A DNA stretch of 64,000 nt from Marsupella aquatica (taxonomy: Eukaryota; Plantae; Marchantiophyta), in contig OZ316892.1 in NCBI GenBank assembly GCA_973895155.1, positions 13,389,270 through 13,453,269 of the forward strand, in the 5' to 3' direction. This document shows, piece after piece, positions 10,121 through 34,256 of this stretch. Below the pieces are notes generated by a model that saw nothing but the letters and a program-made list of their open reading frames with translations, searched no databases and was not told the origin of the DNA. Positions within the stretch are counted from its first letter, which is position 1; each line of letters starts with the position of its first letter. A program made the position numbers and the translations under genes.

Positions 10121-10455
10121 TGTCACACCATTCTAGGTAGTGTTAGAGTGTATCGTACTATCTAGATCCGTATGTTTGGTATGTGTGCTATATGAGTTGA
10201 TAAGGTTCCATTAGGTTTGTGTGAGAGGGTACTTTTCACTTGTGAGGCATTGAAAGGTCATCTTTCAATGTTGAGCCTTGGAGAGAGAGAGGAGCTTGAG
10301 TGTGGCTATGGTGGCTGTGAGCTCCGCTTGTGTAAACGTGGATTCCTTGAGTAGTGCAAGGTGCGTTGGCTTGACATACGTGTGTTCTTGGATTGGTGCG
10401 GGATTGATGGGGTATTGTTGACCGGGATCGTTGTGCCGATTGTATTGAGATTACA
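10121..10455 (+). repeat. 5' LTR segment (part B) of the methyltransferase Gypsy
   Basis: About 95% identical (~17 differences by eye, mostly transitions) to 30875-31207; ends GAGATTACA. Confidence 0.85.
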
Positions 10456-10464
10456 TTGAAAGAT
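10453..10464 (+). promoter_or_regulatory. Putative self-priming primer-binding site
   Basis: ACATTGAAAGAT at the LTR end is the exact reverse complement of ATCTTTCAATGT inside the LTR (10260-10271); no TGG tRNA-type PBS is present. Confidence 0.55.
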
Positions 10465-10939
10465 CATGAGCTTCAAACTCTGTTGTGCGAACAAAAGCTC
10501 AGTCTGAGTTTGTCGTTGATGGTGACGGTTCGTGGTAACTTGAATCGATTGGATTTGTGTTTGATGCGGATTCATGTTTCTTGAATCGTTGGTTCTATTG
10601 TTTGAGTACACTGTTGCTATTCGATCTGGTTATGGCCAAGCTTGAATGTTGTTGGATATAGATCTGGTCTAGATCTAGATCTGGATTGAGTCGGAGTCTA
10701 GATCTGGATCTGGAAAGAGATGGTCGAAGGTTGCTGCTTGTATCGCGCTGCTATTTTGTGGATAGATCTGTTGGAATTTTGAGTGCTCACAGCGTTTTAT
10801 TGTCAAGGGACGCTCGTGGAATGTCCCAGAACCGTGCGTGACAGGTTTGCGGAGATTGAGAGCCATCAACATTGTTGTTTTTGTGAAGGAAATTGACAGT
10901 TTTGGGGAGCTTTTCGTGAAGGAAGTAGTCATTTTTGGG

Positions 10940-11175
10940 GTAGGATGTGAGGCGCACGAGGTCACCCATCCCGAAAGTGCTTGCGCGAGGCAACGCGTGA
11001 GGTCACCCATCTCGAAAGTGCTCCCAATCGTGAGCGCGAAGTCACCCATCGTGAGCACAGGCAGGCGCAAGGTCGAGGTCGCCCATCCCGGGGCTATTCC
11101 GAGCCATGAGCGCGAGGGGAGGCACAAGGTCGAGCGCGGGGAGGTCACCCACCCCGGGGCTATTCCCAGCCGCAA
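10940..11175 (+). repeat. Short GC-rich repeats in the 5' leader
   Basis: About five copies of g(a)ggtcacccatc and two of cccggggctattcc. Confidence 0.6.
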
Positions 11176-11969
11176 GCGCTTAAACCACTACTCACCCTTT
11201 AAAGTGCTCCGTGTAACGCGGAGCCTTCATTACTCACTATGTACAGAAAAAATACCATCGCGTATTTCGGCTGCGCCTCCTCGATACCGTCGGATACTGA
11301 CTTGCACCCGCGCCTATACTGGTCCGTTCAATCTCATCTACGGCTCATTTTGTAGATCTCGTCGAGACCTACGACTGGGAAAAAACGGCATCCCAAAATA
11401 CGCAATATTTAGGGAGAAAAGGGTAAAAAACAAACGCTGCAATCCCATTGGCTGGGGTTTTTTTGAAATTTGAATTTGATCCGGGCAGCTACAGTAGCCA
11501 CAGTACAGTCTAAAGGGTACAACTCAACATACTATACAGATTCTCACCATCATTATATAATATGTCTTTTATTCTGTGAAGGACAACAGTAATTGCTGTC
11601 AGATTGGTTGGGAAGTTTGAGAACCTCCAAGAGGGTTCGAGATCAACTCTCGTCCTATTCTAATTTTGAAAATGAAGAAGTTGCCTGGCAACTAAGCAGT
11701 GTCGTGAACAATCTGCATTTTTATGTCCATCAGATCCACGATCCGACGGTTACTATGTACAGGTCGGGGTATAGGCGAAACCGGAATACTGTACACACAA
11801 AGGTATAAAATGGCCACGCTAGTGTATTCTATCAAAGTTGTCTCCGCCTCTTGGGTTTGAGTATCTTGTCATTTCTCTCTTCCTCCTCTTTGATTTTGTG
11901 CAGGGCCCTCGTTTTGTCTTATTATTGTGTAGGGTGAGCTTGGCATTCGGTCTCGGTCCTTCCTTCCTT

Positions 11970-12185
11970 TGGTTTTGCAATTTTTAGTGGTTTTGCAATT
12001 TTTGTCTAGGTAATACATTAGTTTTTCTTAGTGCACTTTTTTGTGTTTTTGCAATTTTTAGTAATTTTGCAATTTTTATCTAGGTAATACATTAGTTTTT
12101 TTTAGTACACTCTTTTTGTGGTTTTTGCAATTTTTAGTGGTTTTGCAATTTTTATCTAGATAATACATTAGTTTTTTTAGTACTT
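11970..12185. repeat. T-rich tandem repeats upstream of the transposase
   Basis: Three copies of ~75-bp unit ttttgcaatttttagtggttttgcaatttttatctaggtaatacattagttttt. Confidence 0.7.
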
Positions 12186-12205
12186 TGGCTGACATAGTGT
12201 CTAGG

Positions 12206-14835
12206 ATGGAGCCGACTGACCTTCCTAGTAGGCGGCGTAAACGTCCTCCCCGGGGCGGTGGTCCTTCAAGACCAAAGTACCCGAGTGATGACATGGAGTA
12301 TAGGAAGAGGATGAGACCGCATGCCAAGCCACCAATCCGGGTCCCAGTGGAGCGATGGTATGAGTGGGAGGAACTTAGACTTTTATTGGGAGATGACTTG
12401 AATACCACCCATGCTACAGTCATTCATTGGTTACTTGACAAGTGCAGTGCTGCGATACACGAGTTGAAGAGACGGCAAGTGGTCCAGGCAGCAACACTTG
12501 CAAGTGAGGCATTGCCACTTGGGGTGGAGAACGAAGAACCCCTTGGTGTACCTGAAGAACACATGTTCGATCTAAATTCAGTCCCGGCCAACAACTCCCT
12601 CCATGTAAGAGGTTCTTTCCTATTCTATTTCATTGTATAACTTGCTGGTTTTATCTAATCTTGCAATTTCAGTTTTCACAATTTAATGTACTAACTTTTT
12701 CAAGTCAAACATTACCAGGAGTCTTTGGACGAGGAACAACACTCACGACATGAGAGGGGACCCATGGATTTTGACCAGTCTCAGGTCTAATGCCTCCTTT
12801 ATTTTTTTCATTCTCACTCACATTTCTTTCCCATTCTCACTCACACTTCTTTCCCAAGTTTACTTTTTCCTCTGTCCTTTCTTTCACCATATATCAGCAT
12901 TTTAAGTTGGTAGTGTTTTTTATCTATATTCTCTAATCTGTCCCGAGTCTTCAATGTTATTGTTTGTCCATTTCATGAATTTTTGTTTTTCCTTGACCAC
13001 CAACTCTTGTATCTAATCCATAGGGAATGCACCAGAGTGGGAGAGTATTTGAGGCTTACAATGAATGGCCCGAGGACATTATCCAGGGATCTTCTGGTGA
13101 CGATGACATCATCTTTGGAAATGATGATCCAGATGTGGTGGCTGCTCTAGGGGGCCAGGTATGTAATGTAACTTTATGGTATTTTAACTTACAACTTTTA
13201 TATTTTAATATTTTTTACAGGAAAAGTTTGCAAGCATACTTAGTCTGTTATGTGTTATATATTGGTCATGTACCAGACTCAAACAACTTGCATTGAGGAT
13301 TCAGAGTCGCTTCCCTCGGCGGTAATGGATTCTCAAGTGGTGCCTGTTGACGTGACAGACTCCCAACTTTCTCAAGTTGAGGTCATGGATTCTCAAATCC
13401 CTCCTCTTGTAGTGATGGACTCTCAGATCCCTCCTAGTCATGTGGAACATTGTGAGGCTCATGAAGAGGTTCCAAAAACAAGATTCCGACCCCGTGAGCC
13501 TGCCACAGTTGGTTTCATAGAGCGCCATTTGGTGCATACTTTTGTGGAGCAACTACTACCTAGATGTCATATATCCGGATGCCCTTTGACCCCTACAATA
13601 CATCATGTGAGGGAGTTACAACAGTTGTGGTCTATACCGATTAGTTGTGGGCTGGAGGGACATGGTTGGACTTTTCTTACTGGAGAGATGGAGTCGAGAA
13701 GGGGTTCACCTTTGGTTACCACCAAGTTGTATCACTCTACATTATGTGCCGGGCTCACATATACATCACTGTCATCTGTTGCATCACACCTAGGTTTGCA
13801 TGCCCCTACATCGCAGCATTGGTATGACTTTCAGACAGGTCGAGGGCGTCTCGGGGTTGGTTGGATTAAAGCTGTCAATCAACAATGGGAGGAAAACAAA
13901 AAAGAGTTGTGGCAAAATTTGAGACATGATATCCAGTGTGGGGTTGACCTTCAAGCTGGTAAGTACTAACTCTCATTGTGTTATTATTTGTCTCTTGAGC
14001 ATAATTAGCTTCCTGTTTAATTTGTTGTGCTTTGCAAATACTTATCTATTTATTGATACTGGCATGTTGGGGTTTTGGACAGATCCTGGTCTTGTCGTGT
14101 ACTTAGATGCTCGATGGGACTCCTCGCGTAGTGGTTATCATGGTACTGTTTCAATTATCAACCTTGCGGATAGTAAGGTTATAGAAATGGTGACTACGAC
14201 CAAAAAAGAGGAACCCAATTCATGGTTGATGGAGGAACTAGGGACCAGAAAAGGTTTGGAAAGATTGAGAGACAATGGAATTGTAATCAAAGAGGTTAGT
14301 GTTCTACTTTATCAAATTCATAATATCTTTATTGTTTTCCTTTATTTTGTTGTTGTTTTCCTTTGTCAGTAAAATACATAGTTTAGTGCTAATTACCTTG
14401 GCACTGTCTTGTAATTTTCAGGTCATCCATGATGATAACTCTGCTATGGATGCTATCCTTCGAGACCTAGGGTTGATGAATCAAAAAGATTTGTGGCACA
14501 AAGCCAAAAATCTTGTCAGGAAATTTGTGGACAAGTTGGTGAAGTGCACATTTACCTTGACAGTGGACATTGATACTGCAACAACCAGGTTAGTGTTTGT
14601 AAGTCTTCTTAGTTTCAATCCTATAATTTGAACTGAGTGTACAATTTTGTATGCACTTTTAGCTTCCACTAAATGCTTGGGATGATTGTGTAGGTCACAA
14701 TTGCAAAGTGCTACTGTCAAGCAGATGCAAGATTGGTTGAAGGCAAAAGGGGTAAGAGGGTTATCTAAGTTCAGGAAAATTGACCTCATCCACAAGGTGG
14801 GAGATTGGAGTGTAGCCATATTTAGTTTTCACTGA
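12206..14835 (+). CDS. Kolobok/Mutator-like DDE transposase, C-terminally truncated. Exons ~12206-12604, 12719-12784, 13024-13158, 13277-13958, 14083-14294, 14422-14588, 14694-14796/14835
   Basis: Canonical GT-AG joins keep frame. Motifs: CHISGC...CGLEGHGW, YLDARWDS (D1), MEELG, IHDD (D2), KDLWHKAK (D-x-W-H), then a SAP-like helix pair. No third catalytic E seen. Confidence 0.7.
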
Positions 14836-15214
14836 AGCCCACAAACACTTCATCCTCGTCATGCCAAGCCTCCTTGATGGCTTCCTCCACAGTTGGAGGT
14901 AATCATGTTCTCTCTGCAAACCCACACACCCAAGCCAAATGGGTGTACACTTGAAACCGTTTTTTCTTGTTGACAGTTTTGGTGAAGCTATAAGCAGCAC
15001 ACATTTGCAGGTCTTGGAGTGGCACAGCAGGGTTCAACAACTGGTGACATTCAGCGATTGCTTTGAACAATAATGGCTGATCCCACTCAACCTCTAGCAA
15101 GCTCACAACCTCCTCACATTGAGTAGACCCATCCATCCACCTCAACCGATATGTCTCAAGGTCAGGATCCATCACCGTCAATGTGGCAGTGCTCCTTGGC
15201 GTCTTATTGGCCAT
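14822..15214 (-). pseudogene. KolX / P2X7-ballast-like protein, copy 3 (one in-frame TGA at 14903)
   Basis: KKRFQVYTHLAWVCGFAERT*LPPTVEEAIKEAWHDEDEVFVGFSEN; paralogous to the two copies upstream of it on the - strand. Confidence 0.6.
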
Positions 15215-15329
15215 TCTACAAAACATAAGACAAAAAAATGCCATTTATACAAGTGCACAACAATTTAGATGTATGTCAATTGAGGTTACATTGAGAAGAG
15301 CTAGGAATATTATTTGTGCAATGATGGAC

Positions 15330-15725
15330 CTATAAGGGTCTAGGAGTGAAACCAAACAAAGCTTCTTCCTCCGACTGCCAAGTGTTCCATATAGCCTCTT
15401 CCAACATATCTGGGAGCCTTCCTCTTGCATCCAAATGACAAGCTCGAGCCACATAACTGTGTACTAATGATCTTTTCTGGTGTGGTTTGGTTGCACACCA
15501 ACTATAAGCGGCCATGCGTAAGTACTCCTCAACAGATATAACGGGGTTGAGGAGGTGATGGCAGTCTTGCACAGCAGTGCAAAATTCAGGAAAGTATGTT
15601 TCAATTTCACCCATGGAAAATTGACGTTGTCCAATAGTGTCCATTGGATGTTTGAGCCAAGACACAACATATGTGTCACCATGAAGGGACTCTAGAGTGG
15701 TGACTTGGCTATGTCTACCTTCCAT
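15330..15725 (-). CDS. KolX / P2X7-ballast-like protein, copy 2
   Basis: QKRSLVHSYVARACHLDARGRLPDMLEEAIWNTWQSEEEALFGF; ATG lies just after a tttgcag acceptor. Confidence 0.6.
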   Translation of the reverse strand: MEGRHSQVTTLESLHGDTYVVSWLKHPMDTIGQRQFSMGEIETYFPEFCTAVQDCHHLLNPVISVEEYLRMAAYSWCATKPHQKRSLVHSYVARACHLDARGRLPDMLEEAIWNTWQSEEEALFGFTPRPL

Positions 15726-15966
15726 ATCTGCAAAGAAAACTAGAGTCATGCATATTAGGCAGTAGGCATAAAGCCAAATTTTCATGTGGACTTGTCTCTA
15801 TATAGTCAAATACAAAAGGCATGACTTACATGCTCCATCATTCTGCAATACTCATTGATGATTTAGCCATGAAATCTGGAACATAGGAATGAAAAAACCA
15901 ATATCATACTCGTAAAATAGAACTTTGAGTAACAAAATATCTGGAAGGATTATGGTTCCTATCCTA

Positions 15967-16347
15967 TCATTCCTCTTCTTCCTCATTGGGCCAAGTAGCA
16001 AGTATGACATCTTTCACAGGGCAGGGTAGCGTATGTCTACTAGTTGATCCACAAATGAAAGCCAAGTGAATAGATACTTGGAACCTCTTCCGACACATCA
16101 ATGTCTCACAATAACTGTATGCGGCACAAATCCAAAGGTCCTCCAAGGGAGCTGTAGAGTTTAGTGCAATACGATAGAATTTGATAACATTGCACCACTC
16201 AGGGAAGTCAGACTGAATCTCTGCTATTGTAGTGGTGCGTTGGATGAGAGGGGCATGGGAAGGAGCATTGAGCTCCCTCCAGCTCAGTTTGTATGTCCCA
16301 TCATTGAGGTCAGTCATGCTCACACGAACACCTCGCTTGTGGTCCAT
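15967..16347 (-). CDS. KolX / P2X7-ballast-like protein, copy 1
   Basis: RKRFQVSIHLAFICGSTSRHTLPCPVKDVILATWPNEEEEE; shares the YxLxW, FPE-C, LN-xxP and CAAYS motifs with copies 2 and 3. Confidence 0.6.
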   Translation of the reverse strand: MDHKRGVRVSMTDLNDGTYKLSWRELNAPSHAPLIQRTTTIAEIQSDFPEWCNVIKFYRIALNSTAPLEDLWICAAYSYCETLMCRKRFQVSIHLAFICGSTSRHTLPCPVKDVILATWPNEEEEE

Positions 16348-19300
16348 ATTGTTGCATGTAGAACAATAAGTAAGATTGATAGGTTGTCACTGTGGAACTC
16401 ACCTATGTGTGTTCAGCTCCATATGGAATATCAAATTAGACATGGACATAAACAAATAGAAAGTCTGAGCCATCTTACTATAAGCTAAGATTCTACCAAG
16501 AGGGGTGTACCTATGTGTCATGTTGGTAATATATTCATGAAACAACAAGGCTTACTAAGGAACCGAAAAAACTCGAGAAGTCCACAAAAATAAGTAATAA
16601 TCAACTTCTCCTAAAGGGGTCTATATAATTATGTGATATTTGCTACATGAAATTGCAAGTTAGAGATATTGATTTTATAAGTTGAAGGGCACAATATGTG
16701 ATGTTTTAGTTTGAAGGGCAGATATCTAAGGACCTCATCATAAGAAAAAGCAAATAGAACAGAGGAGATAATTATAAGGACCCCTAACAAGAGCGAAACG
16801 TACAAAGGGCCTGGCTGTTTAGGACCCCCTAATAAGAAGTAAGGGAAAGAGAAAGCGCGAAGCAAAGGGCCTGGCGTTAGGAGGAGTGGGGTTGGGTGGA
16901 CTGGGCTGATGTTCGGCTGAAGCTATGGCTGGCGAGGTGGGCTGGGCCGTCGAGGCTGCGCAAAGTCGAGACTAAGGAAAAACAACAGCAGCAGCAGGAG
17001 AGCCTTCCAGCAAATTGGAGGGGAGCGGAGGAAATGGATGCGAGGAAAGTCAGTGATGACTGACTGACGCACTCACTGAGCTCGGTTGTCTGCTTGCTCG
17101 ATTGATGATTGATTGCAAGCGAGAGCGTTTAGATGGGGGTCCTTCCCGTTATGTTAGACGACATTGAAGGATGAAGCAAGGATGAAGCTGGTCACTACAG
17201 TTTGTAATAAGATCTCAAAGCCTTGGCATTGGCGGACATACGCTATGCAGTCGAAGGCCCCAATGATCCTCATTATCATCCTCAAAGCACTAACTTACCA
17301 GCGGAAGCTACACTAAAGAACGAAGCTAGAATGAAGAACAAAAGATGGAAGCTTGCAATGCAACAGGTAGGCAGGGGGATCAAAGCATCCAATTACTCCA
17401 GTTCATGCGATCGCCCGTTGTCTCTGTCCCTGTAATGACATTCTTGCGACAGAAAGAAAACTCAGGCCGACGATGATCTACAAAATCCGGGTCAATTCAC
17501 ATTGACAGTTTTGGAGAACCTCTGTTCATTATTTTGAATCAATCTCTCCGAGACATAGACAATAACTTCACAATCATACAATTTCTTCCCACTTCCGAGG
17601 AGTTTGTATCCACTACCATAGGCTACAGCAGGCTAGAGAACGACTTTATCCCCATCTTCGCCTGAATCACCCAGGACTATGTTGGGTGGATGGCATGGGT
17701 TGATCAGCTGTTCAAGCCCCTGAGCTTGCCGAGGGAAGCGAAGTACATCACGCCGTTCTACCACCGGTTCTCTCTCTCTCTAATGTTGCTAAACTGAAAA
17801 CTACGAGCTCTGACATTTGATTCCAAATGTAAACGAGACACCTACCCATTTCAGTGAAGCATACCTTCACCACGCACAAGACAAAATTGGAAAAGCGGCG
17901 AGAACAAGAAGCTATATAAAGACACACAAAAGGAGAGTGCAGGCCCCACAAGAATCTGCGCTCATAAAAAGTAATGAATCAAGCGGAACCTAGCACAACA
18001 ATTTCAAATGTGAAGTCAAGAATAGATTCTCAAAAGACAGTGGCGATTGCCAGGCTCAAACCTGCAGGACGGGAGCCTTTCTGATCGTCACAACAGTTGA
18101 CCCGGCCAGTGAGTCCGTTCTTGATTGAGTGAAACCTCCCTTCGCAAGTAGACAGCAAGAGGACAAGCAAACAACACACAGAGCATGGACGGGAGCATGG
18201 AGCTTTATACACCTTTCTCCCACAGTCATGTGGAAGAGCGCACATAGAGAACATTGAGAAGGGACAAATAGGGAGACAGCACACATACATCTTATCGAGT
18301 GATGCAATCAGAGACAACCCACATAGATCTAATCAAAGGGTGCAATAATCAAAGACAGCGCACATAGATCTAATCAAAGGGTGCAGTCGGACAAGCAGAT
18401 TGAGTCCAGAGAAAATCACGTTATTGATCAGGACAATTGGAATGTTCAATTTGTGTCGACCCATGAGCAATCCAACGATGCATGGGTGAGGACAAAGGAC
18501 GCGTTGTAAGATGTGTCGAGGTGACAAGTCGATCTGACGCGTGCTAGGCCACAACGACGCGCAAGGTGAAGGGACCACAATCTGCTCAGGATGGACATAA
18601 TGTTGCTGAATCTCTTCGTGTAGGTGATCACATCACGGCATAACGTTCACGGCATAGTGTTCTCTACAGTGGAGTTGTCGCGAGTGACAAGCGACTCCTG
18701 AGGCATGGGCAGCCAGGGTGGGCAGCCAGGACGGGCAGTGGGGACGGGCAGGTCCGCACAGTACTAGGTGAGCCCCGCAGGACATACTGAGTGCGGCCGG
18801 ACGGTACTCTGGGGGCTTTTATACCCCGATGCGTGGTTTAACTGGCAAGTTCTCATCTCACCTTGTGCACACAAGCATTCACAACTTGCTGTTTAGTTTC
18901 AAGCGCCAAGGGGCTTTATACACTTTCCGGTTTGCTTAGAGTCTTGTTTTGGGCCAAATCAGAGGCTCTTTAGAGGTTTTTGATAGTTCTGAGTTCATCT
19001 AAATACACAGATTGAATCAATTCTGCATGGTTTCTCATCTATAACATTGGAACATCATGAAGCCTATTATGAAGGCCTTTCATTGAACATTATGAATATT
19101 TGTTTGATCAATATGTGATCACTCTTGGTGTGGAGAGTTAGTGTTTGACTATTCTTGTTGATTGGATCCTCTCCACACTTGTTTCCTGTTTATGCGCCAT
19201 GTTGGTTTGGTATGGGCGCTTGATTCCATAGGAGTGATCCGGGTTTGCAACCGGACATTCTAGTGTGATGTGTATTTATCTCCTGGTGATGTTGGAGTGA

Positions 19301-19389
19301 TGCCCAACACACCATGGTGAGTGCTTGTGTTGCTGACAGGGACAGATTGCCCTTAGGGTTAGCATATAGATTAGGTTAGGTTGGACACC

Positions 19390-20640
19390 ATGGATTCTTC
19401 TGGTGCTGCTGGGTTACCCGATGGACGACGAACTGGTTTCACTCGGAGTGGGGCACAGTTTTGGCCAACGACATTGGTAGCAATCAGAAGTGCAGCTTCA
19501 AACAGTGATTCCGACGAGGACTCAGTGACCAGCTCTCCTTGTCATCAGGTGGTTGCACCTTTGTTGTGGGATATGGACGAGATGTACGGGGCTACAAAGG
19601 GCCCACGACGATACTCTAGTGCAGTTGGCACAATTGATTTGGATGACTTCATCTAGGAGTTTGATACATGGTGCGATATGCAGACATTGCGTAATGCCAT
19701 GTTGTTTACCCATTTCATGGCATGGAAGGGATTATTTCAGCATTTGGAGGGGCCACCCATGGATGACTACCATGAGTTTCGGAAGGCTCATTTGGTTGAG
19801 ATTGAGGCATGGAGGCAACATTGGTCGCCTAATTGCGTGTCTATCACCTATGGCACTAGTGCGGCTGCCCAACCCATTACCACAGCTACTGCTTCTTCTA
19901 GCAGCACTAGCCAAAGTGGCACACCATCCACCAGCAGCACTCCAGTAACATCCACCGCTACTCCTACCGGTGTGATTGTGACAAGAACTGGAGTTGCGCC
20001 AGCATTTAACCCTGTGGTGGAATTCTTTGAGGTACTGAAGCAGAACTATCAGGGTATGAGAACTGATAAGTTGAAGGGTCTCCAGGAGTTCCAGCGCAAG
20101 ACTGGAGAGAGTTTACGTGAGGCATACACTCATATGCGTAGATTGATCACTGTCACCAAGGGAGTGATAGAGGCTCAGGCAGTCCAGTTTTGGTATGCAA
20201 TTCTGGACAGAGAATTGCGATGCAGAGTGAAAGATGTCACTCTGCTTAGGGATGCAGATCCCACATTAGCAGTTGTTTTTACCCTTTCTGAGCGCATTGA
20301 GCTCAATATGGTGAATGAGAAGGTGGTGACTTCCGGATTTTCCAAGAAAGCACCAAAGGCTGCATCTACATCCACAGCACAGCCTACTGCACGAAAGAGC
20401 CAGAGGGAGAAGTCTACTGCACGAGAGTCTACCAGCCAGAGACCTGTGCCCTCTTATGCTGGACAGCAGTCAGGATGTTGGACCTGTGGTGGAGATCATG
20501 CACAGAGATATTGCCTAGATCATAGAGGATCAGGGGGGAGCATCAGCGCCTGATCAGCGATAGTGTGATCACTGTGGAGCTCCTGGACACACCAAGGATA
20601 GGTGTTTCTCACTCCACCCTGAGTTACGGAGGGGAGGATC
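19390..20640 (+). pseudogene. Gypsy gag with two zinc knuckles
   Basis: FQRKTGESLREAYTHMRRL gag core; CWTCGGDHAQRYC and (after a frameshift) CDHCGAPGHTKDRC; in-frame stops at 19654 and 20551. Confidence 0.8.
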
Positions 20641-21439
20641 CCGTACACATTATCAGGGAAGAAGAGGAGGAGGTAGAGGTGGTGGACGTGGTCGTGGCAT
20701 GCCACATGCAGGGAGACAGGAAGGTGATGCTGCCCCTGTTGTAACCATAGATCCAAAGGATGCTAAGATTGCTCAATTGGAGCAACAGTTAGCTGCCATG
20801 GCTAGTTCCCAGGTGAGACCTACTTCTAGTGATGGGGCATCTACATCCTATGGACCTTCCACATCCCATGGTCCTTCCACATCTTATGGAGCTGATGGAG
20901 ACCTTGCCACCATGAGATTCATGTGTGGCACTGCACATATTGATGCATCAGCAGCGTTGACACGTGGGACAGCCAAAGCTCTTGAGCCCCGAGGAGCAGT
21001 AGTGGAGTTAGATCCACAGAGGGGGGATGCACATTGGCAGACAAAGCTTCCTCAGTCTTTTACATTGTCAGAGACAGTTCAGACTGCCTCTATGAACCCG
21101 GTTCGGACGAACCCTGATGTGGGTAAGTTGACAGAATCAGGTAGTGATGCAGCAAGGATGACAGGTACCCTGCTGGGGGCGGCTACTGCCATGGTACGCA
21201 CCCCATTATTTTCAGCGACAGACATGCTGAACTTGGGAGTTGGTCCTGCATAAGTGTTTAGATTGGCAGCTACACTCTGTGAGGACACTCCAGTGGTTGC
21301 TTCCCATGCAGAAGCAGCTTGTAGTGTTGAAGCAGTGAAGACCATGCCACCTACTGCTACTAGTGAGACATGGCATGCAGCAGCAGCAAGGTTGGTGGAT
21401 TTACCAGCACACCCTACATTTGAGAGGACTAGGTTTAAA

Positions 21440-21860
21440 CCTAGTATTGTGTTATTGGATAATCGGAGTGGTATCTTCCGATTAGTTGGGCCTTTTGGGG
21501 CAGTATACCAGTCAGAGAGAGTGTTATTGGATACTGGTGCTCAGCCCTTGATGTTGGGTAAGTCTGCCATACGTGGATTGGGATTGCGTCCAGAGGATTT
21601 GGAGGATTGTCCCTTTCCCATTCAGACTTCATTGGAGGGACCTACACCTACACAACACATTACCAGGAGACCTCTTGATTTGAGGATTCAGGAAGGTCAT
21701 ACCACAAATAGCTCACAGATATAGGCGTGAGCTATTTGACTAAGGCAGAGTCATATGATGTGTTGGTGGGATGTACAGTGCTCTATCCCATGGGATTTAT
21801 TCTTGATTTTTGGGAGGAATCAGTGTCATATAGACCTGATTGACAATTAGGAGATGCTCG
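21440..21860 (+). pseudogene. Retrotransposon aspartic protease
   Basis: VLLDTGAQPLMLG active-site motif, and YDVLVG downstream after a frameshift. Confidence 0.8.
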
Positions 21861-22230
21861 ATTGAGCAAATTGCCAATGAGATTTAGTGGACCTGTGGGA
21901 GGCCCTAAATCCACACCATTGTCTTTGGCAGCATTCAGTGGTCTAATTGCTGAACCTGATGATTTGATTGAGGGTAATGCGCATGCAGCAGATGTTCCAC
22001 CATTGGAGGAGTCTCATGAGGAGCACATCATGCGAGGATTACCTGTTGGAAGTGTTGTGCCACCAGTGTGGGGCACTGCACAGGCCCTACCACAGGCAGC
22101 AACATGATTGGTACATGATGCATGGCGTCATGCTTTTACACCACAGTCAGGAGCAGAGCAGCCTCTTGCAGATGGACCTATGACTCTTGCACCATTGGAT
22201 ACCACTCCTATTGCTTGGCAGTATCCACCG

Positions 22231-23499
22231 GAGGGTATTTATTTGTTGGATCTTTTTGGTGGGATTAGCACTGGATTGGCTACTGTTCTTCAAGCAGGAA
22301 TTCCTGTGCGTCGTTATTTGTATGTGGAGTCAGATGAGACAGCACGGAGGGTCTCATTGCGACATGTGGCTATGTTGCTGGATAGATATCCACAGTTGCT
22401 GCCAGTGGATGCTGTTCGTGGTTATCAACATGCACTACCTGCTGATATTTCATTGTTGGGAGCAGATCATCTACATCATGTTGGCCCCATTGATTTGGTG
22501 ATTGCTGGTTGGCCATGTCAGGGCCAATCTAGAGCTAGCGTTGGGCATGGACTTCATGATCCACGCTCTGCATTGTTTTGGGAGATGTTACGGGTGCTGC
22601 GTCATCCCCAGCTACATCAGACACAGTCTCCAGCATACATTTTGGAGAATGTGCCATTGTTAGGTGATGATCGCAGTCGGATTGTTGCCAGTGTTCACCA
22701 GGTGAGGTCTTGGATTGGACCTACTGTGTTATTGGATGCTGCACGTGTGGGTTCTCATGCACATCGTCCACGCTTGTGGTGGACTAATTTGATCCCATGT
22801 GAGGTGCTGAAGCGCGCATTTGACAGCATTCCACGCTCACCAGCCTTAGTGGTGGATGATATTTTGGATCCAGGGCGTCGTGCACAGGGTGTGACCCAAC
22901 CTGATAGACCTCCATTGGCAATGGTCAATGCAATTGGGCGCCCACGTTGTGCATTACCCACTCTTGTAAGCCACTCTACTTCATATGCATTCAGAGCAGG
23001 TGACCCTGGACTTGTGTGGGACACAACTCTCCAGCAGTTAGTGGAACCTACTGCTGATGAGAGGGAGCGTGCTATGAGATTTTTGACTGACACCACTGTA
23101 GTTGCCTCTCGGGGGGGTCACTATATGAAGGGTCATACATCACGTGCGACGGTTTGGGTCATTTATGACCCCCCTAAGTCACTTTCTAGAAAGTTATACG
23201 ACACCAATCATGTGATGACACGTATGCATTTTGCAATTAAACAACCCTATATTTCCATAGAAGACTTAATAAGTCTTCCGCCAAAACCATTTAAATGGCC
23301 CTATACTTCGTCGCACATGATATGCCACTTCCATGGAAGTGACCCCCCCAAGAGTTGCCTCTGTGTCAGAGGGTTTGCGACGCCAGGTTCTTGGTCAAGC
23401 AATGGATCTGAATTGTTTGACTTGGATTATCAGCTTGGGAGTAGCTGAACAGTTGCGGATGTGCTCTGCTGGAATTACTGATTGTCCCTTGGTGAGCTA
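22231..23499 (+). pseudogene. DNMT3/DRM-like DNA (cytosine-5)-methyltransferase domain inside pol, interrupted by a MITE
   Basis: Motif I LLDLFGGISTG, II YLYVESD, IV IDLVIAGWPCQGQS, VI ILENV, VIII RPRLWWTNL, IX PTADERERAMRF, and X LRRQVLGQAMDLNCL (the last recovered after removing the 253-bp insert). Confidence 0.9.
23110..23353. mobile_element. MITE (~245 bp) inserted in the methyltransferase
   Basis: Imperfect ~41-bp TIRs GGGGGGGTCACT...GTGCGACG / CGTCGCAC...AGTGACCCCCCC; direct repeat GTTGCCTCT at 23101-23109 and 23354-23362. The exact boundary between TIR and TSD is ambiguous. Confidence 0.8.
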
Positions 23500-23825
23500 A
23501 CGGTCCACTGAGACAATACTGACCACAGCTGGGGGCGAGCAGACAGTCCATGGACCTATGGCAGGATTGGCCAAGGCTGGACAAATTGTTGAGCAGGAAG
23601 GGACTGCTCAATCTACTGTTAAATAGCAATCGATCATCGGCTATCTCTTCTACCCTACAAAAAGATATTAGGGATTTGGTGGAGAGCTGAGAACCACAAC
23701 TTGGCCCTAAGTTGACAGGGGAGGAGAGACGTTGCATGCATCGATTCTTGAAAAATTTACTGGAATTGTTTTGCATTTAGCATGAAGGATTTGGGGACAT
23801 TGAAGGGCCTGGTATTCAGATTGAA

Positions 23826-25115
23826 TTGGCTAGTGATGCGCCAATCTTTCGTAGACCATACTGTTACAGTGACATGGAGAGAGCTCTGATTCAAAGCAGA
23901 ACTCAAGATTTGTTGGAAGCTGGATTGGTGGAGATTTCATATGGAGAGTATGCATCTGCCACAGTGATGCCAGCCAAGAAGGATGTGCATGATAATTACA
24001 CAAATAGGCGCATGTGTGGTGATTACAGACCCATTAATTGTCAGACAAAATCTGATAGATATGCCATGCCCACACTTGAGAAGATCTTTGATGCTGTGGG
24101 GCATGCAAAGGTCTTCAATTCATTGGATCTGAGGGTAGGGTACCATCAGCTTCCAATTAGGCATGCTGACAGGTCCAAGACAGCATTCTGGGAGATTGAT
24201 TCTTATGGCAAAGATTATTTGTATCAGTGGTTATTCTTACCATTTGGGTTGAAGAATGCACCAACTGAGTTCCAGAGAGTCATGGATCGAATCCTTGCAG
24301 GTTTGGGTTTTTTCAGATGTTATATTGATGATATTTTGGTCTATTCTTCTACTATGGAAGAACATCAACAACACTTGCAGATTGTGTTGGAGAGATTAAG
24401 AACACATGGGTTGAAGCTCCATCCTAGCAAGTGTAAGTTCTTCCAAGATCAGATTGAGTATTTGGGCCACACTATATGCCCAGGGGGATTGGGTGTACAA
24501 CAGACTAAAGTGGAGGCCATTACACAGATTCCTTGTCCTACTGATGTGAGTAGAGTTCGTGCATTCTTGGGATTGGCGAGCTACTACAGGAGGTATGTTA
24601 AAGGATTTAGCCAGCTTGCTAAACCTTTGACCATACTCACTAAGTTGGACCAGGAATGGATTTGGGGTGATGACCAGGAGCATGCCTTTCAGGAGTTGAA
24701 GCAAAGGTTGGCATCATCCCCTATTTTGAGAAGACCCATTTCAGGCAGATCATTTCAGCTACACAGTGATTGAAGTGGAGTAGGACTTGGAGCAGTGCTG
24801 ACTCAGAAGGATGATGAGGGGAATGAGTTTGTTGTGGCTTATGCCAGTAGATCAAACAATTCAGCAGAGGCTAAGTATAGCTTTTATGAGGGAGAGTGTT
24901 TGGCAGTAGTGTGGGCTGTTGCACACTTTCATTGCTACTTGTTTGGTAACCCCTTCACCTTGATCACTGATCATCAGCCTCTTAAGAGGTTAATGGAGTC
25001 TGACAAGCTTACAGGGAAGCTTGCACGATGGGCATTGTTGTTATAGGAGTATGATTTCCAGGTTGTACATAGACCTGGAAAGGTGAACTTGGAGGCAGAT
25101 GGGTTGAGCCGCAAC
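23826..25115 (+). pseudogene. Gypsy reverse transcriptase and RNase H
   Basis: RMCGDYRPIN, LDLRVGYHQL, LPFGLKNAP, YIDDILVYS, YLGH; RNase H LHSD*SGVGLGAVL, VAYASR, EGECLAVVWAV, TDHQPL, ADGLSR. Confidence 0.95.
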
Positions 25116-25389
25116 CCATGTACCAGTCAGCAGGATGAGACTGGAGCCAGATGGCATGCATCTGCCTTTCTTTGTTGGGTGCCAGCATACAGTGGATCTG
25201 TGGACTCTACCTCATTGGATGGAGTGGATAATGAGTCTTCAGATGTGGATGTTGGTGAGGTAACTTCTGGACAGCAAAATATTCACAATGATGTGAGAGT
25301 GTTGGAATATCTGCATAGTGGTTCTATTGTTGGCAGTGTTGATGCCAAGGAACGCGACAGGGTTCTACAGAGAGCCAAGAGGTTTTGAT

Positions 25390-25597
25390 GGGAGGGAAAC
25401 CATCTTTTGAGAGTACTGCATGATGGTAGGGTGTTGGTGGTACCAAAACCATCACAACGAGTACATTTGGTGCGACATGCACACAAGGAGTTGGGTCACT
25501 TTGGTGTGAAGCGCACTTACAGCTTGCTGCAAATACAATATTGGTGGCGTGGTATGCACACTCATGTCCAGCAATTGATAGCTAAGTGTGTGGTATG
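25390..25597 (+). pseudogene. Integrase N-terminal HHCC zinc finger
   Basis: AHKELGHFGVKRTY...YWWRGM...CVVC; continues in frame at 29441 (DRVRASFN). Confidence 0.9.
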
Positions 25598-28500
25598 TGT
25601 CGCACCCCTACCCTGGGCCTTAAATCCGGGTTAGTGTCGTGGTGCGACCTCGACCACCAGTAGGGGTGAGGGTTTGGGCAAGGAGGTGTGTAGTGACCTT
25701 CATTAGCCCTAAGTCGGGCTAAACCGCTATACTTACTGGTATAACACTCGCATAATTCGTACTTGACATAGATATATTTATTTTCCACCGCTGGAATTTT
25801 CCCTCAGTTAGTGACGCGGACTAACTCCCGACTTGGGGCTTTTCAAGCCATCGACGTGACAGGAACTTGTGACATGCAATGAGTGGCAATCCCTACCATT
25901 AGTCCGCACCCGGTACGTCCCTTAAAATGGCGCCTTTGCCCGGACAAAGCATACACACAACACCAGTTACTCTCAGAAACATTAGGGGGAAAAGACTACA
26001 TTTACTCAGCGAAGCATCAGTTTACATGGTTGACTCGACTTCAAAGGGGGACAACAGGCCCAACGGCAGTCGATGCCCAGTCTCTACGAGGCCCTGCCTC
26101 GCACTTGCCCAGCAAGCTCGACTCTGGCTCTCACTCCTTGGTACGCTCTGACCCTACTCAGGCCGGGACTCCCCGTGCCTCGCCTTTCTTCTGCTGAGAT
26201 AACTAAGCCTTCTCCCCCTTCCCATCGCGGAAGGGGAAGCCTAAATACTACCATAGCGGAAGAGAACCGGAGGATACTACCTTCCGGGGTACTACCTACT
26301 GACTAACTAACTGCTGACTATTGGTCGCGCTGCACTGACCGGTTGACCGTCGACTACGAGTGTGCCAACCGGAATGGCAGCGGCCAAGCCTACTGACAAA
26401 CTCTAGCCCGTTGATGGACTCAATCCTACGTTGGCTGATCCTAACTGACCGGCCCTAATTCTTCCTACTGCCGCTAATCGGCGCCTAATGACAGTCATTC
26501 TATCGTTACGCCTAACTAAAAGATGCCGCTGACTTAACCGCCTCGCGCGGCGCCTGCTTCTACCCTTCGCCAACTACCCCTTACGTGTGTGCAGTGGTTG
26601 GACCAGGGCTGGTCTCCTTGTCGGGGCGAGACCTCGAGCCGCCTTGATCAGAGGTGGGCCCAGGTTTTCCCCGCTGGAGGACGAGCAGGGTGACGCGGTC
26701 CTGCAAAGCCTTGTTATCCCGTAATGCTTCCTCCGCCTCGTTTGCAGCTTCATCGACTTCAGTCTGGAGCCGCGCCACCTCCAAGTTGAGCTGGTCGATG
26801 GCGTCGCGATGGACTTGGTCCTGCGCTAGCAATTTATCTCGTTTGGCGGAGAGACTAGCCACCTGCTGTGCTGCCTGCAGGAATTGTTTGTTGAGGTCGG
26901 TCAGGCTGGTAACCCGAGCCAAAGATTCTGAGCGTAATTGAAGCACGGTGTCGTCCAGCTTCTTGAGTTCGGCCTGCGCTCCGCTTAACTCCTGGGTTAG
27001 TTCGTCCCTCTGTTCGACAGTGCAGACTAAATCCTCACGGCGGGTCGTTGCCTCCTCCTCGAGGTGCTCTACCAGCATCTGGAGACGCCCGATCTCATTC
27101 CCCTTCGCCATGAGTTCTTCTTCCAAGCGGCTGACGATCCGTGGTTGGTGCTCTAACATGAAGAAGGCTGGCTGAAAGTACGCCGAGACTTGTTGTCCGA
27201 TGTATGTCGCCAACTCCCCAGACATAGTCTGGCTAAACTTCTGGACCAGGTCGTAGGCCATGGTCCCCAGGGCTACTTGGTAGTCCTCCATCCTCTCGGG
27301 TACCGGTGGTTCCTCGGCAGGGGCAATGAGCTCCTCCGTAGTCAGCGTTGGGGAGGGGAAGGTTTCTTCAGGTGGTGGAGGGATTGGGGGTGGTTGTACT
27401 GCAGGTAGCGGAGGCTCAACGGAAGGAGGCGGTGGAATTTCCACAGGGGGCGGTTGCGGAGTATTAGTCGGGGCTTACGGCTTGGGGTTTGTCCAAGGGA
27501 CAGTAGTCCGCGTAGTCGGGGTTGCCTCCTCTGGGGCGGGGGTGACATTACCCGGGGCTGAGGTGGCCGTATTCTTTCCTCTGGCCTCCCGCCGTGCCTT
27601 GTACCAGGCGAGGATAATGGCGATATGACTTCCCAAGTAAGTCTTCCCTCCAATAGCCATACCACCCTGAGCCCGCTTCAGCTCCCCCGAGAATCTTTGG
27701 TAGAAGAATTGGGCCCAGTTTCGTCGTTTGTACTGTTCCACCTGCACGATCGTGCAGAGGGAAATCTCGGATCGTGGCTCAATCATATGTAGGGTAGTCC
27801 GTATGAAGTTAAGCCGCTCCATACAGGTTAAGTTGGTGCACGCCCCCTGCTTGTATTCGTTGTCCGTCTTACCCTCGGGTTTGAAGTGCCACGGCGTATA
27901 CTCCTTATCCCGAATTTGGATTTCCACCGGCACCGGCCCGGTTGGTAGGCCAAAAATTTGCGTTAACCGATGCTCCGTGAGTGACAAGGTCTGCCCCGAA
28001 ACCTTGGTGGTCGACGCATCAGTGTCGAAATTGGAGATGAACTCACAAATCTCCTTCGGCCCGGCGGCGCACGGCCTCCATAGTAAGTGGGCGAACCGCT
28101 CCAACTGATGCTCCTTGAGATAGTTCGCATGTTCGAGTTTCTTGATCGCGATCCAGACTACCTCGGGGACGCGGATTACCTGTAATAAGTTGGACTTTGG
28201 GTTATCCGGGGGCCGTCGGGTCTGGTTGGTCGGGGGGTTTGCCGGGGCAGGTGCAGGTGCGGCGTCGGTCCGTGTTGATTCGGGGGCCGTGGTAGTCCTT
28301 GACCGCTTACGAGGACGCTGTTCGAGTTGCGGACTAGCTCGCTCGGAACCCGAAGAACACTCCGCGTTGATTACTGGACGGACTTGGGACTGGTTCGGCG
28401 GTACTCCGGTGGTCATCGGTTGAGGCGCTGGGGTAGCCATATCCCAGTTGAAGGCGTTGGAGCTTTCCCCGAGGAACGTGAGATTACGCGCCACTTCCCG

Positions 28501-29435
28501 TTGTCTGCTGATGTCTTCTTGGCGCTTTTTGGCTGCGATCTGCTGGTCTAGGTACCCCGGAATCTTGTCGAACTCCGCTTGAGTAAGCCGCTGGTTGCCC
28601 TTTAGCTTAAAGAACTTAGCTAGAACCTCAAGAATCGCCTCTGCTACCGATCTAAGCCCTTCCTCGCTGAGATATAGTTCGGTGATGTAGTCTCGCAGCT
28701 CGTTATAGCTAGAATCCCTGGTGATGGCTGTCCTTTCGCAATTAACCAGTGCTACCTTGGTTACCAGCTTCGCGTACCTTCGTTCGTAAGCGGCTTTCTC
28801 GGGGCAAGAGTACCAGTAAGTCTCGGAGAACTTAGCACCTACCTCGCCAAACAAGGTCCAAAATCCCAAGGCTGTGAGGGTCATACTAACCTCGTAGTCT
28901 GGTTCGTTGCGTCCACGTTCCCACCTGGCTGGTCCTTTTTCGCGGAGGCCTCGCTCGTCCTGACTAAATCTCGCCACATTCCGCTCTTCTCCCTCGATAA
29001 TTTCCTCGTAAAGGTCGACTGGATTCAATCAAAAAGGCGAGCGGATGGCAGCGTCCGTGAATTCCAAAAAGGTAAACGTGAGCGAATGGCCCGTAGTGCC
29101 ATCGGCTCCTCTCTTATGGGGGTGCCAGGACGAGCCCGAGCGTGAGAAGGTCAGGCCGTTTGGTCATTGATAACGAGCTGAAGTCGGGGTCTCGGTCCAA
29201 GCGTGATTCTTCTAACTGATTTTTACTCCGCTGCCGCCACCGTACCTCCATCGTGCGTAATAATCCCTTTCCTGAACTCGTAATTATTCGGTTATCTTAA
29301 CCTACTCCTAATCTAATCATAATGGCAACTTGGCGGCTATACATGCTATTCTACGTTATGGCTACGGTCCTTATGACCATATAAGTCCTAATCTTTGACC
29401 TGGGTTCGGTCAAGTGACACGTTGCCCGTGTCACA
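25598..29435. mobile_element. 3.84-kb TG...CA insertion (solo-LTR-like) containing a long ORF
   Basis: Begins TGTCGCACCC and ends GTGTCACA; 5-bp TSD GTATG at 25593-25597 and 29436-29440. Its removal restores the integrase frame. Confidence 0.85.
26581..29028 (-). pseudogene. ~815-codon retroelement accessory protein (plant-transposon/PMD-like domain, Pro-rich linker, long coiled coil); one internal TAA at 27475
   Basis: The 517-aa and 287-aa ORFs are in the same frame, separated by a single stop. ICEFISNF...VSGQTLSLTEHRLTQIFGLP resembles plant-transposon accessory ORFs; the C-terminus is heptad-rich. Confidence 0.7.
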
Positions 29436-29440
29436 GTATG

Positions 29441-30561
29441 TGATAGAGTGAGAGCATCATTTAATGCTCCCACTCCCCAGTTGCACCCATTGCCGATCAT
29501 GGGTTTGGGATATCGTTGGAGTTTGGATTTTGCTGGTCCATTACCTCTTACCCAACGTCATAATCGCTATGTTTTGGTCATGGTGGAGCACTTCTCCAAG
29601 TGGATTGAGCTAGTGGCATTGCCCGATAAAGCCAGTGGAGGAGTTGCTGCTATATTTTTGGATCGCGTACTCAGTCATTTTGGAGCACTAGCTGAGGTGT
29701 TGACTGATCAGGGAACTGAGTTCTATGGAGAGTTTGAGAGTTTGTGTGAACAAGCTCTGATTGATCATTGTACTACCTCTCGTGATCATCCTGAGGCAGA
29801 TGGATTAGCTGAGAGAGTTGTGCAAATTGTGAAGAGAGGATTGCGTAAGTATGGCTTGCAGGTTGGTCATCTGGGAGATTGGGATCTCCAGCTACCTTGG
29901 TTAGCTATGGGCTACCGTTTCAGTCGGCAAGCATCACTTGCATCCTTCTCACCTTACTTTTTGCTCTATGGTAGAGAGCTAGATTTGCTAGCAGCTATTC
30001 GTCGTGATGCTGCACCAGTTGTGAACTTGGATGATCCTGATGTTTGGGTCAAGGTGTGTTCAGAGAGAGCACGGGTATTTCAGAGAGTGATGCCCATGGC
30101 TTTTAACAACCTTGCCATTGCCCAACATCGTGATACTTTGAGGTATGCCACTATTTGTAGAGGAGGTTACCGTGCAAGCATCCGACGTTCATCCTGGTGA
30201 TTATGTTTATTTGCAGCAGACAGCACCCACAACACTTGATGTGACTGCAGGTCGGACAATCTTACGTGTGCGTGAAGTGTTGCCTTCTGGTGTCCTGATG
30301 TTGGAGGGACGCGATGATATGGTTTGGAAGGATCATGTGCGCAACTGTGCACCATGTCACATTCCCAACATTGATGGTACAGTAGATCCAAGCTTGACAC
30401 ATGTTCGTGTTGGCTTGAAATGTATGTTGTGTGGATCTGCTCAGGGAGCAGCTACTATGTTGATTTGTGATAAGTGTTCTAGAGGATGGTACATGTCATG
30501 TTTGACACCACCATTGCAGGTGATTCCTAGTGGATCATGGTTGTGTCCTCAATGTCGGTGA
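29441..30561 (+). pseudogene. Integrase core, C-terminal domain and PHD finger (one frameshift near 30190)
   Basis: WSLDFAGP, LTDQGTEF, ADGLAERVVQ, SPYFLLYGR, PGDYVYL; ends CMLC-x11-CDKCSRGW(Y)MSCLTPPL-x7-WLCPQC. Confidence 0.9.
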
Positions 30562-30725: not shown

Positions 30726-30736
30726 AGGGGGGCAAT
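30726..30736 (+). promoter_or_regulatory. Polypurine tract
   Basis: AGGGGGGCAAT immediately before TGTGGG at 30737, about 165 bp after the pol stop. Confidence 0.75.
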
Positions 30737-31328
30737 TGTGGGTTTTGGACATGTGTGGACATGAGTTCCACTTGTATTCCATTCTCTTGTGTTTGTGATG
30801 TGGCAGTGTGACTATGTTTGGATGTATGTGACAAGCGATGTATGTTGTATAACGATGTGTATGCGCACGATAGCTGTCATACCATTTTAGGTAGTGTTAG
30901 AGTGTATCATACTATCTAGATCCGTATGTTTGGTATATGTGCTATATGAGTCGATAAGGTTCCATTAGGTTTGTGTGAGAGAGTACTTCTCACTTGTGAG
31001 GCATTGAAAGGTCATCTTTCAATGTTGAGCCTTGGAGAGAGAGAGGAGCTTGAGTGTGGCTATGGTGGCTATGAGCTCCACTTGTGTAAACGTGGATTCC
31101 TTGAGTAGTGCAAGGTGCGTTGGCTTGACATACGTGTGTGATCGGATCGGTGTGGGATCGATGGGGTATTGTTGACCGGGATTTTTGTGCCGATTGTATT
31201 GAGATTATTGTGGGTTTTGGACATGTGTGGACATGAGTTCCACTTGTATTCCATTCTCTTGTGTTTGTGATGTGGCAATGTGACTATGTTTAGATGTATG
31301 TTATGTAGCGATGTGTATGCGCACGACA
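30737..31328 (+). repeat. 3' LTR (A+B, 30737-31207) followed directly by a second LTR part A (31209-31328)
   Basis: 30737-30872 matches 31209-31328 (with a 16-bp indel); 30875-31207 matches 10121-10453. Confidence 0.85.
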
Positions 31329-31516
31329 AGACAGTGAGGATCGTTGAGTAGCGGTCGTATAGGTGAGCAAGTGCGGCTTTGTATGGGAGGGGCCGCTGGT
31401 GGTGCAAGAGGCACTTGGGTGCTTGCTCAAGGTATTCTGTGGAGGCGTTCGGACACCAAGGGCACTTAGGCGCGAGTGCTGGGATTGGTGAGGGCGCTGG
31501 GTGGTGAGGTCCACCA

Positions 31517-33410: not shown

Positions 33411-33534
33411 ATAGCACTTAGAGATTTTTATTCATATCTATTTACTTTCAAGGAACTGGTCATGCGACTAGTATGTCATAAAGGAGACCTAAATCCTATA
33501 CATGTAGGTCCGTTGGTCCTTTACTGTACATCAT

Positions 33535-33755
33535 TAAGTGACCCTCATGCTTGGCCTCATGCTTGGCTCCAAGGAGTAAATGACCCTCATGCATGGCCTC
33601 AGGCTTGGCCCCATGCTTGGCCTCATGCTTGGCCTCATGCTTGGCCCCGTGCTTGGCTCCAAGCAGTAGGTGACCGGATGGATTGGCCTCGTGCTTGGCT
33701 CCAAGCAGTAAGTGACCGGATGGATTGGCCTCGTGCTTGGCTCCATGCTTGGCGC
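33535..33755. repeat. 12-bp minisatellite (cctcatgcttgg) with ~42-bp higher-order units
   Basis: Directly visible repeats; they generate the AWPH/AKHE repeat ORFs in the track. Confidence 0.85.
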
Positions 33756-34256
33756 ACAGCATATACAGTAGCAGTAGCAGTACAGAGATAATATAATAAC
33801 ACGGGCGATGGACGAGACAGAGTTCGTGTGCCGTGAACGAATGGAAAGTCCGAAATCACACAGTTTGGCTGAAGAGTGAGTGGAGACGGACGATGCAGGG
33901 GAGTCGGGAAATTCGTAGATCGCCAAGAGCGCAGGAAATCAAATTTGGCAATGCTCGATCGGGTGGCAGAATGCGCAGCCGGGATCAGGGTTTCCTCCGC
34001 TTCTGCTTACCGTTCAAGGCCTTCGCTGATGAGTGAGGTGTATTTCTTCTTCTCGATCCGCAGAAGGGCGATCGATCGTGTTTCTCGGATGATCGCTGCT
34101 CAATAAATTATGTCTAGTAACAATCGAGGTGGACTGTGAGATTTTATGCGTGGGAGCTTCTTTGGAGAGACGAACAGGACAGAGAAGCCATTTGGTTAGC
34201 TGAGTGCACACGTCGAGCTCAGCACAGGGGAGGGAGGGGAATGCTCCTGAGAAAAG

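Follow-up and report, generated by a model that had tools for sequence, protein, structure and literature searches.

The stretch of DNA considered here (the window) comprises 64,000 nucleotides of the liverwort Marsupella aquatica (assembly GCA_973895155.1, contig OZ316892.1, positions 13,389,270 to 13,453,269). It harbors a decayed Ty3/Gypsy retrotransposon that encodes a DNMT3-like C5 cytosine methyltransferase (MTase). The full element occupies 10121-31328 on the forward strand, between 4-bp target site duplications (TSDs), and extends well beyond the interval 19390..30561 given in a preliminary description of the sequence. The succession of Gag, protease (PR), reverse transcriptase (RT), RNase H and integrase on a single strand is that of Ty3/Gypsy elements; the RVT_1, RNase H, integrase zinc finger, rve and PHD profiles of Pfam pass their cut-offs, and DNA_methylase is matched with an E value of 4.5e-10 in the open frame 22108-23109. 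The preliminary description had proposed such an element, with the MTase between PR and RT and a PHD finger on the integrase, and its domain assignments and motif positions are borne out.

Coding domains and identity of the methyltransferase

Gag, with two zinc knuckles, lies at 19390..20620, is interrupted by one stop and one frame break, and is 58% identical to Marchantia Mp4g09160; like it, all coding domains of the element are on the forward strand. The aspartic protease (21425..21820; LLDTGA at 21524-21541) gives a weak Pfam match, below the cut-off (E 0.006). The MTase follows at 22231..23107, with motifs I to IX: DLFGGIS, GWPCQ, ENV, RPRLWWTNL and ERERAMRF stand in linear order, all in the open frame, and motif X (RRQVLGQAM) is found after a miniature inverted-repeat transposable element (MITE) that splits the domain. 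This MITE of 245 bp, which we take to be hAT-like, occupies 23108..23352, with terminal inverted repeats (TIRs) and an 8-bp TSD. Motif X and the C-terminal tail of the first open reading frame (ORF1) occupy 23361..23623, the last residue being the same as in the 85%-identical relatives P0121 and P0211. Next come an in-frame TAG followed by CAA (23624..23632), a predicted long-range RNA stem (23639..23740, arms at ~23639-23662 and 23715-23740), RT and RNase H with stops (23781..25100; YIDD at 24321-24332), the integrase zinc-binding domain (25389..25597) and, beyond a nested element, the integrase core with its C-terminal PHD finger (29436..30561, the finger at 30421-30555), these domains being recognized by Pfam. 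In the PHD finger of the window, a Tyr replaces the zinc-binding His that is kept in 12 of 12 matched relatives.

This copy is dead, as the preliminary description had judged: in addition to stops, frame breaks and the MITE, it carries ~8 kb of extra leader DNA and a 3.84-kb insert. Contigs of two sequencing runs cover the stretch by the thousands, and since some of them skip the MITE and some the nested element, both insertions are private to the window copy. The nested TG...CA element (25598..29435, reverse strand), with a 5-bp TSD inside the integrase, does not belong to the family studied here and is abundant in runs X1 and X2; its two minus-strand open reading frames, of 517 and 297 aa, have no significant Pfam match, and it is possibly a large solo long terminal repeat (LTR) or a non-autonomous element.

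Sequence and fold similarity both indicate that the MTase is DNMT3-like and unpermuted, as had been supposed. In a single-sequence search of the PDB, the top matches were DNMT3A, DNMT3B and DNMT3C, with DNMT3A best (1e-11) as against 3e-4 for a chain of 4onj, presumably a plant DRM-type enzyme, and 9e-4 for M.HaeIII. A 45-sequence profile gave E values of 1e-22 for DNMT3A, 1e-8 for DRM2, and 3e-7 for M.HaeIII. The window's own domain being interrupted by the MITE, the fold was modelled on P0001, a 70% identical relative (pLDDT 89). This model aligns with DNMT3A over its whole length (274 residues, Z 28.9, rmsd 2.6; Foldseek E 1.6e-18), and Z scores with bacterial enzymes are 25.1 and 23.8, the latter for M.HhaI.

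Residues were counted in the 79 of 90 long proteins that covered enough of the domain. The catalytic Cys, the EN pair, the motif VIII arginines and the S-adenosylmethionine (SAM) loop are nearly invariant in both of the architecture groups described below. Among 28 proteins with the MTase on the Gag side, the Cys is present in 25 (three gaps, no substitution), EN in all 28; the final Arg of motif VIII is found in 26 (two gaps). Motif IV has drifted in the chlorophyte-type group, where the Pro before the Cys is kept in 16 of 51 proteins and often replaced by Glu or Ser. The MTase is under purifying selection, with dN/dS values of 0.11-0.23 between subfamilies (0.11 at dS 0.28 for the least saturated pair) and 0.38-0.45 among decayed close copies; for RT, the values between subfamilies are 0.03-0.10 where computable. 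The domain is intronless.

Homologues were collected by protein searches (the best 120 of 152 matches in the first, 90 listed in the second) and by a profile search that gave 646 clusters at E<=1e-30, of which 150 were listed; 30 proteins were looked up for their names. Six plant genera were thereby named, namely Marchantia, Calypogeia, Riccia, Sphagnum, Klebsormidium (K. nitens, Gag-PR-MTase) and Closterium (PR-MTase), and the chlorophytes Hariotina and Scenedesmus were also among the look-ups. Two architectures are found. In streptophytes, Gag-PR-MTase is followed by RT, and in the chlorophyte type the order is RT-RNase H-MTase-integrase-PHD, to which 51 of 79 long homologues were assigned by domain order or identity. 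P0152-P0204 and P0367-P0484 form a large set of such polyproteins, including those of Hariotina and Scenedesmus. In unrooted MTase trees, each architecture falls on one side of a branch (support 100/99; SH-aLRT 95 in the tree including Klebsormidium); a quick RT tree has the same split and shares small clades with the MTase tree. These unrooted trees would most simply be read as one capture with a later relocation of the domain.

The MTase is a family trait, and the window copy is of the liverwort type within an old streptophyte Gypsy family that is present in liverworts and mosses. The preliminary description had conceded that other copies might lack the domain, that selection on it might be absent, or that the catalytic motifs might be missing from the consensus; what was found is a shared, selected and catalytically conserved domain, in a locus search that is blind to copies without the MTase because it was seeded with it. 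Marchantia has near-identical Gag-PR-MTase models of 1278-1281 aa (P0123, P0238, P0239, P0245 and P0246), which are annotated as hypothetical genes and located on chromosomes 4, 5 and V; their likeness suggests recent amplification.

A conserved stop codon before the reverse transcriptase

ORF1 encodes Gag-PR-MTase, and RT, RNase H, integrase and the PHD finger follow in frame past a conserved stop. Scans of metagenome and viral contigs with single proteins gave no matches, and an alignment scan found 285 related metagenome-contig stretches, from which 80 loci were kept, 55 of them containing motif X as well as the beginning of RT. In 53 of these 55 loci, TAG or TAA followed by CAA or CAG stands at a fixed distance before RT; the junction is deleted in one of the two exceptions, and the other is L067. 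Motif X and RT are in the same frame in 41 of the 55. Premature stops elsewhere in the copies amount to 357 of 35,104 codons (1.0%). The stop signal is retained across subfamilies whose spacers measure 486, 528, 600, and 609 nt, and the main subfamily of loci matches a Sphagnum fallax protein in the stop region. In L056, an uninterrupted frame of 1369 codons leads from Gag to the TAG, the ORF1 proteins of Marchantia, Calypogeia and others terminate 78-149 residues past motif X, and the TAG-CAA of the window, at 23624, falls precisely at the C-terminal end of P0121.

The sequence UAG-CAR-YYA is described as the type I readthrough signal of plants (PMC3542737), and the C after the stop as essential in planta (PMC2754532). 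The full CAR-YYA motif is present in three subfamilies (L007, L056/L057 and L059), and by analogy the stop is likely to be leaky and read through at a low rate to yield RT and integrase. Each subfamily can form a long predicted stem 10-15 nt after the stop. Pairing of 5' with 3' arms, compared for two sequence groups and for arms picked after folding, is predicted to be more stable within a group (-13 to -25 kcal/mol) than between groups (-7 to -15).

Because the conserved stop follows Gag-PR-MTase, the MTase would be made at the level of Gag, and RT and integrase only through readthrough. The preliminary description had placed the enzyme inside the Pol polyprotein. It does lie between PR and RT, but as the last domain of the Gag-protease frame, and since the stop at 23624-23626 separates it from RT, the phrase would be true only of the readthrough product. 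The accompanying idea of a mere Pol subunit, cut out beside RT and integrase, finds no support in the land-plant copies, whose Gag-PR-MTase frame ends at this stop.

Terminal repeats, insertion site and neighboring genes

The element starts with repeat A1 (10121..10455, TG...CA), preceded by the left TSD (10117..10120), and finishes with repeat B2 (31209..31328, with a terminal CA), followed by the matching right TSD (31329..31332). Between the coding region and B2 lie a polypurine tract (PPT; 30726..30732), repeat B1 just 3' of it (30737..30872), a 2-nt spacer, and repeat A2 (30875..31208). A1 and A2 are the same in 316 of 334 alignment columns and B1 and B2 in 115 of 119, which gives the order A-coding-B-A-B. 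The same order is found whole in L035, L044 and L065 and cut by contig ends in L006 and L026, while nine loci have the 3'-end form A...B. Integrated copies start at A and finish at B, at a palindromic CA-GC-TG junction; the B1/A2 junction is a 10-bp palindrome in L006, L026 and L065 and has one mismatch in the window. The 4-bp TSD is exact in four of six complete loci, with one mismatch in the other two.

TG...CA ends, a short TSD and a PPT are features of Ty3/Gypsy elements; two complete LTRs flanking the coding region were not found, B preceding A in none of 21 distinct 5' ends. A 12-mer resembling a primer-binding site at the end of A1 (10453..10464) is complementary to 10260-10271 within A1, and in 11 of 18 moss-type A ends a stretch of different letters after A is likewise complementary to a site inside A. 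The PPT before B and this complementarity to A point to a conventional LTR cycle in which a B-A LTR is self-primed. The A2/B2 joints vary among loci and one retains primer-site letters, as would be expected of end-joined circles. A circle opened at the internal palindrome would explain the A...B ends, save for the absence of the mirror form. The simple version, a 2-LTR circle opened at random, was rejected, since it predicts A-B-A-coding-B, a form seen in none of the 21 5' ends. Such split ends may be why pipelines that search for LTRs overlook the family.

The 5' leader (10456..19389, inner boundaries approximate) has been enlarged by ~8 kb of likely inserted DNA: the end of A and Gag are 9118 nt apart in the window and 1140-1310 nt apart in five related loci. 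The inserted DNA yielded no TIR/TSD pair, and an Rfam search of 9000-33500 gave no match. The leader also holds coding remnants with intron-like interruptions at 12164-14830 (+) and 15330-16390 (-), to which Pfam gives no support; the D...D...H.D.WH pattern of the former is presumably that of Mutator-like transposases. The target of the element is another repeat, of which an uninterrupted inverted copy near 32560-33410 represents the empty site. Two inverted copies of this second repeat, 74-81% identical, are found at 9360-10120 plus 31329-31520, the target, and at 32560-33411.

Further along the window, a 511-aa intronless open reading frame with a GATA zinc finger and a coiled coil (34251-35786) adjoins tandem repeats at 33532-33753, and exons at 38640-41900 (-) belong to a host gene that we take to be protoporphyrinogen oxidase-like. 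A WOX homeobox gene lies at 55993-56688 (+); its exon 56116-56640 shares 94% identity with a protein of Calypogeia fissa, compared with 68-79% for Riccia and Marchantia, which makes a leafy liverwort the most probable host.

Proposed function and relation to known systems

On balance, we think it probable that the first frame, Gag-PR-MTase, ends at a leaky stop and that the abundant enzyme methylates newly made cDNA within the particle. Most ribosomes would halt at the stop, placing the MTase in each particle at the level of Gag, and low-rate readthrough would supply RT, RNase H, integrase and the PHD finger. The protease would then release the MTase from Gag-PR-MTase, and the freed enzyme would methylate the new cDNA before insertion, probably at CG as the SymbioDIRS enzymes do. 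A new copy would thus arrive already resembling the methylated DNA of the host, and the PHD finger might bind histone H3 tails and steer integration. The related SymbioDIRS-Dnmt3 domains have de novo CG methylation activity in yeast (PMC5890265), in line with the proposed specificity.

A number of observations weigh against this reading. In yeast, no methylation was obtained with the Klebsormidium Gypsy enzyme, a result that its authors call inconclusive, and they describe a single open reading frame with RT (PMC5890265); three deeper relatives, P0420, P0175 and P0523, likewise read from the MTase into RT without a stop, so that not all members have the stop. The last base of CAR-YYA is not matched in the window (CAA-UCG) or in the main moss type (CAA-CCC), and in L067 no CAR follows the stops. 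Near-copies of a single moss-type subfamily make up most of the 55 loci, and the independent evidence therefore comes down to about five subfamilies and the window. The z-scores of the downstream stem are mixed (-2.8 to -0.5), and RNAalifold found no consensus stem in the sequences after the stop. One contig of run X1, which may be an MTase-less variant, joins 22012 to 23556 across the whole MTase, with a weak 23 letters on its short side. Nor did the composition tests (CpG observed/expected ratio and deamination) reveal a clear trace of self-methylation. The element has a ratio of 0.21-0.44, as against 0.61-0.67 for the older target repeat and 0.92 for the younger insert, but the value for the 5' insert is 0.36 and relatives show no consistent depletion of CpG (0.27-0.78), so that the ratio is not diagnostic. 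Strand-biased deamination, considered as a trace of cDNA methylation, was rejected, as C-to-T rates per site in 27 distinct moss-type copies are equal on both strands (CG 0.18/0.19, CHG 0.23/0.22, CHH 0.06/0.06).

An active enzyme might instead act in trans within the nucleus, either at chromosomal copies or at insertion sites, for self-silencing or the seeding of heterochromatin. Expression at the level of Gag would exceed the need of one cDNA per particle, and the PHD finger is most like those of CHD4, ATXR5, KDM5, and UHRF1, which read unmodified H3 tails. However, the chlorophyte sister group (51 of 79) has the domain in the frame of RT, between RNase H and integrase, a position that indicates a role tied to the cDNA or the integration complex, and the 27 moss-type copies have decayed by ordinary CG, CHG, and CHH deamination; we hold this nuclear role to be unlikely. 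It is quite improbable that the domain has been retained as a DNA-binding or base-flipping module, for instance to protect or organize cDNA ends, with methyl transfer minor or absent. The inactivity of the Klebsormidium enzyme in yeast (PMC5890265) and the loss of the Pro before the Cys in much of the chlorophyte group would fit such a module, but the near-invariance of the Cys, EN, motif VIII arginines and SAM loop in both groups, and the low dN/dS of the MTase, would not.

Action on cDNA could also be combined with a Pol produced by splicing or by re-initiation after the stop rather than by readthrough. In the main moss type, an in-frame ATG stands two codons past the stop, and some Marchantia gene models fuse the MTase to RT by skipping the stop region. 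Such an ATG is nevertheless missing from L007, L056, L057, L059, and the window, only one subfamily lacks CAR, and the frame is preserved across the stop, which leaves this route with slender chances. As for a one-off insertion, a captured host exon or an assembly artefact, the single X1 contig without the domain is all that speaks for it; it is already refuted by the 285 related metagenome stretches, the homologues in six named plant genera and the purifying selection, and the lack of introns and the thousands of related contigs in two sequencing runs reduce its probability to practically nil.

Methylation of particle cDNA by an enzyme encoded ahead of a leaky stop, the reading preferred here, might be part of a wider scheme that we regard as rather doubtful as a whole: a lineage spanning green plants and abundant in liverworts and mosses, with a de novo CG methyltransferase mass-produced in the capsid polyprotein, a leaky-stop gate, pre-methylated cDNA, and insertion by a DDE integrase from a circle opened at an LTR palindrome. 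If this were true, bryophyte methylomes would in part be written by a transposon enzyme. More immediately, the conserved stop predicts a dose, with the MTase at the level of Gag and RT and integrase scarce. Family copies inflate the DNMT counts of bryophyte annotations. As several near-identical full-length Gag-PR-MTase models are present in Marchantia polymorpha, a genetic model with methylation mutants, the question of why a transposon carries its own silencing enzyme is directly testable.

In retroelements, the recoding site between gag and pol usually lies before the protease, unlike the stop of the present family, which lies after both the protease and the MTase. The signal itself shares UAG followed by CAR, in an RNA translated in plants, with the type I readthrough of tobacco mosaic virus and the like (PMC3542737; PMC2754532), from which two subfamilies differ at the sixth base. 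Plant host genes such as PpDNMT3a/b (PMC6453930) have the same DNMT3-type unpermuted catalytic domain, but also a C-terminal DUF3444, which was detected neither in the window element nor in the relatives scanned. Gypsy-7a_cRei of Chlamydomonas resembles the element, by its description, in having a Gypsy polyprotein with a PHD finger, and differs in that no methyltransferase is among its listed domains (PMC9940879). The main text of the REXdb paper, with its Phygy and Selgy lineages, mentions neither a PHD finger nor a methyltransferase. SymbioDIRS-Dnmt3 and SymbioLINE-Dnmt of Symbiodinium also carry C5 methyltransferases, and SymbioDIRS has split direct repeats (PMC5890265); they are, however, tyrosine-recombinase elements or LINEs that represent independent captures. 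Membership of the window element in the DIRS/Ngaro group was considered and is ruled out by its DDE integrase of the rve type and its 4-bp TSDs.

Methyltransferase-bearing retrotransposons were known from algae, and the family is now found in liverworts and mosses. An opinion paper describes such elements as absent from land plants such as tracheophytes (PMC6338049), and two further publications mention DNMT3 borne by retrotransposons in "streptophytes," with a citation of the 2018 study or an allusion to it (PMC12344493; bioRxiv 10.64898/2026.05.21.726589). In the literature covered, to which subscription journals, Repbase and theses did not belong, no land-plant description of the family and no mention of the stop were found. 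The link to Klebsormidium drawn in the preliminary description proved correct: KnitGypsy-Dnmt3 of K. nitens, the streptophyte "Gypsy-DNMT3" (de Mendoza et al., 2018, PMC5890265; also mentioned by name in bioRxiv 10.64898/2026.05.21.726589), combines Gypsy domains with an unpermuted, intronless Dnmt3-like domain that has its catalytic residues and is under purifying selection, and its repeats follow the DIRS-like order A-coding-B-A-B (PMC5890265), features that the present family shares. A candidate counterpart of the published elements is GAQ93235.1, a partial Gag-PR-MTase protein of K. nitens with 37% identity in the domain, placed on the Gag side of the tree with the window (SH-aLRT 95 in a quick, unrooted tree, on a long branch). 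The family described here differs in its high copy number in a land plant, in the conserved stop where the authors give one open reading frame with RT and RNase H, and in the PHD finger of the window element, unmentioned in their main text. It is the KnitGypsy-Dnmt3 kind of element extended into land plants, with an expression signal that had gone unremarked and with unusual ends.

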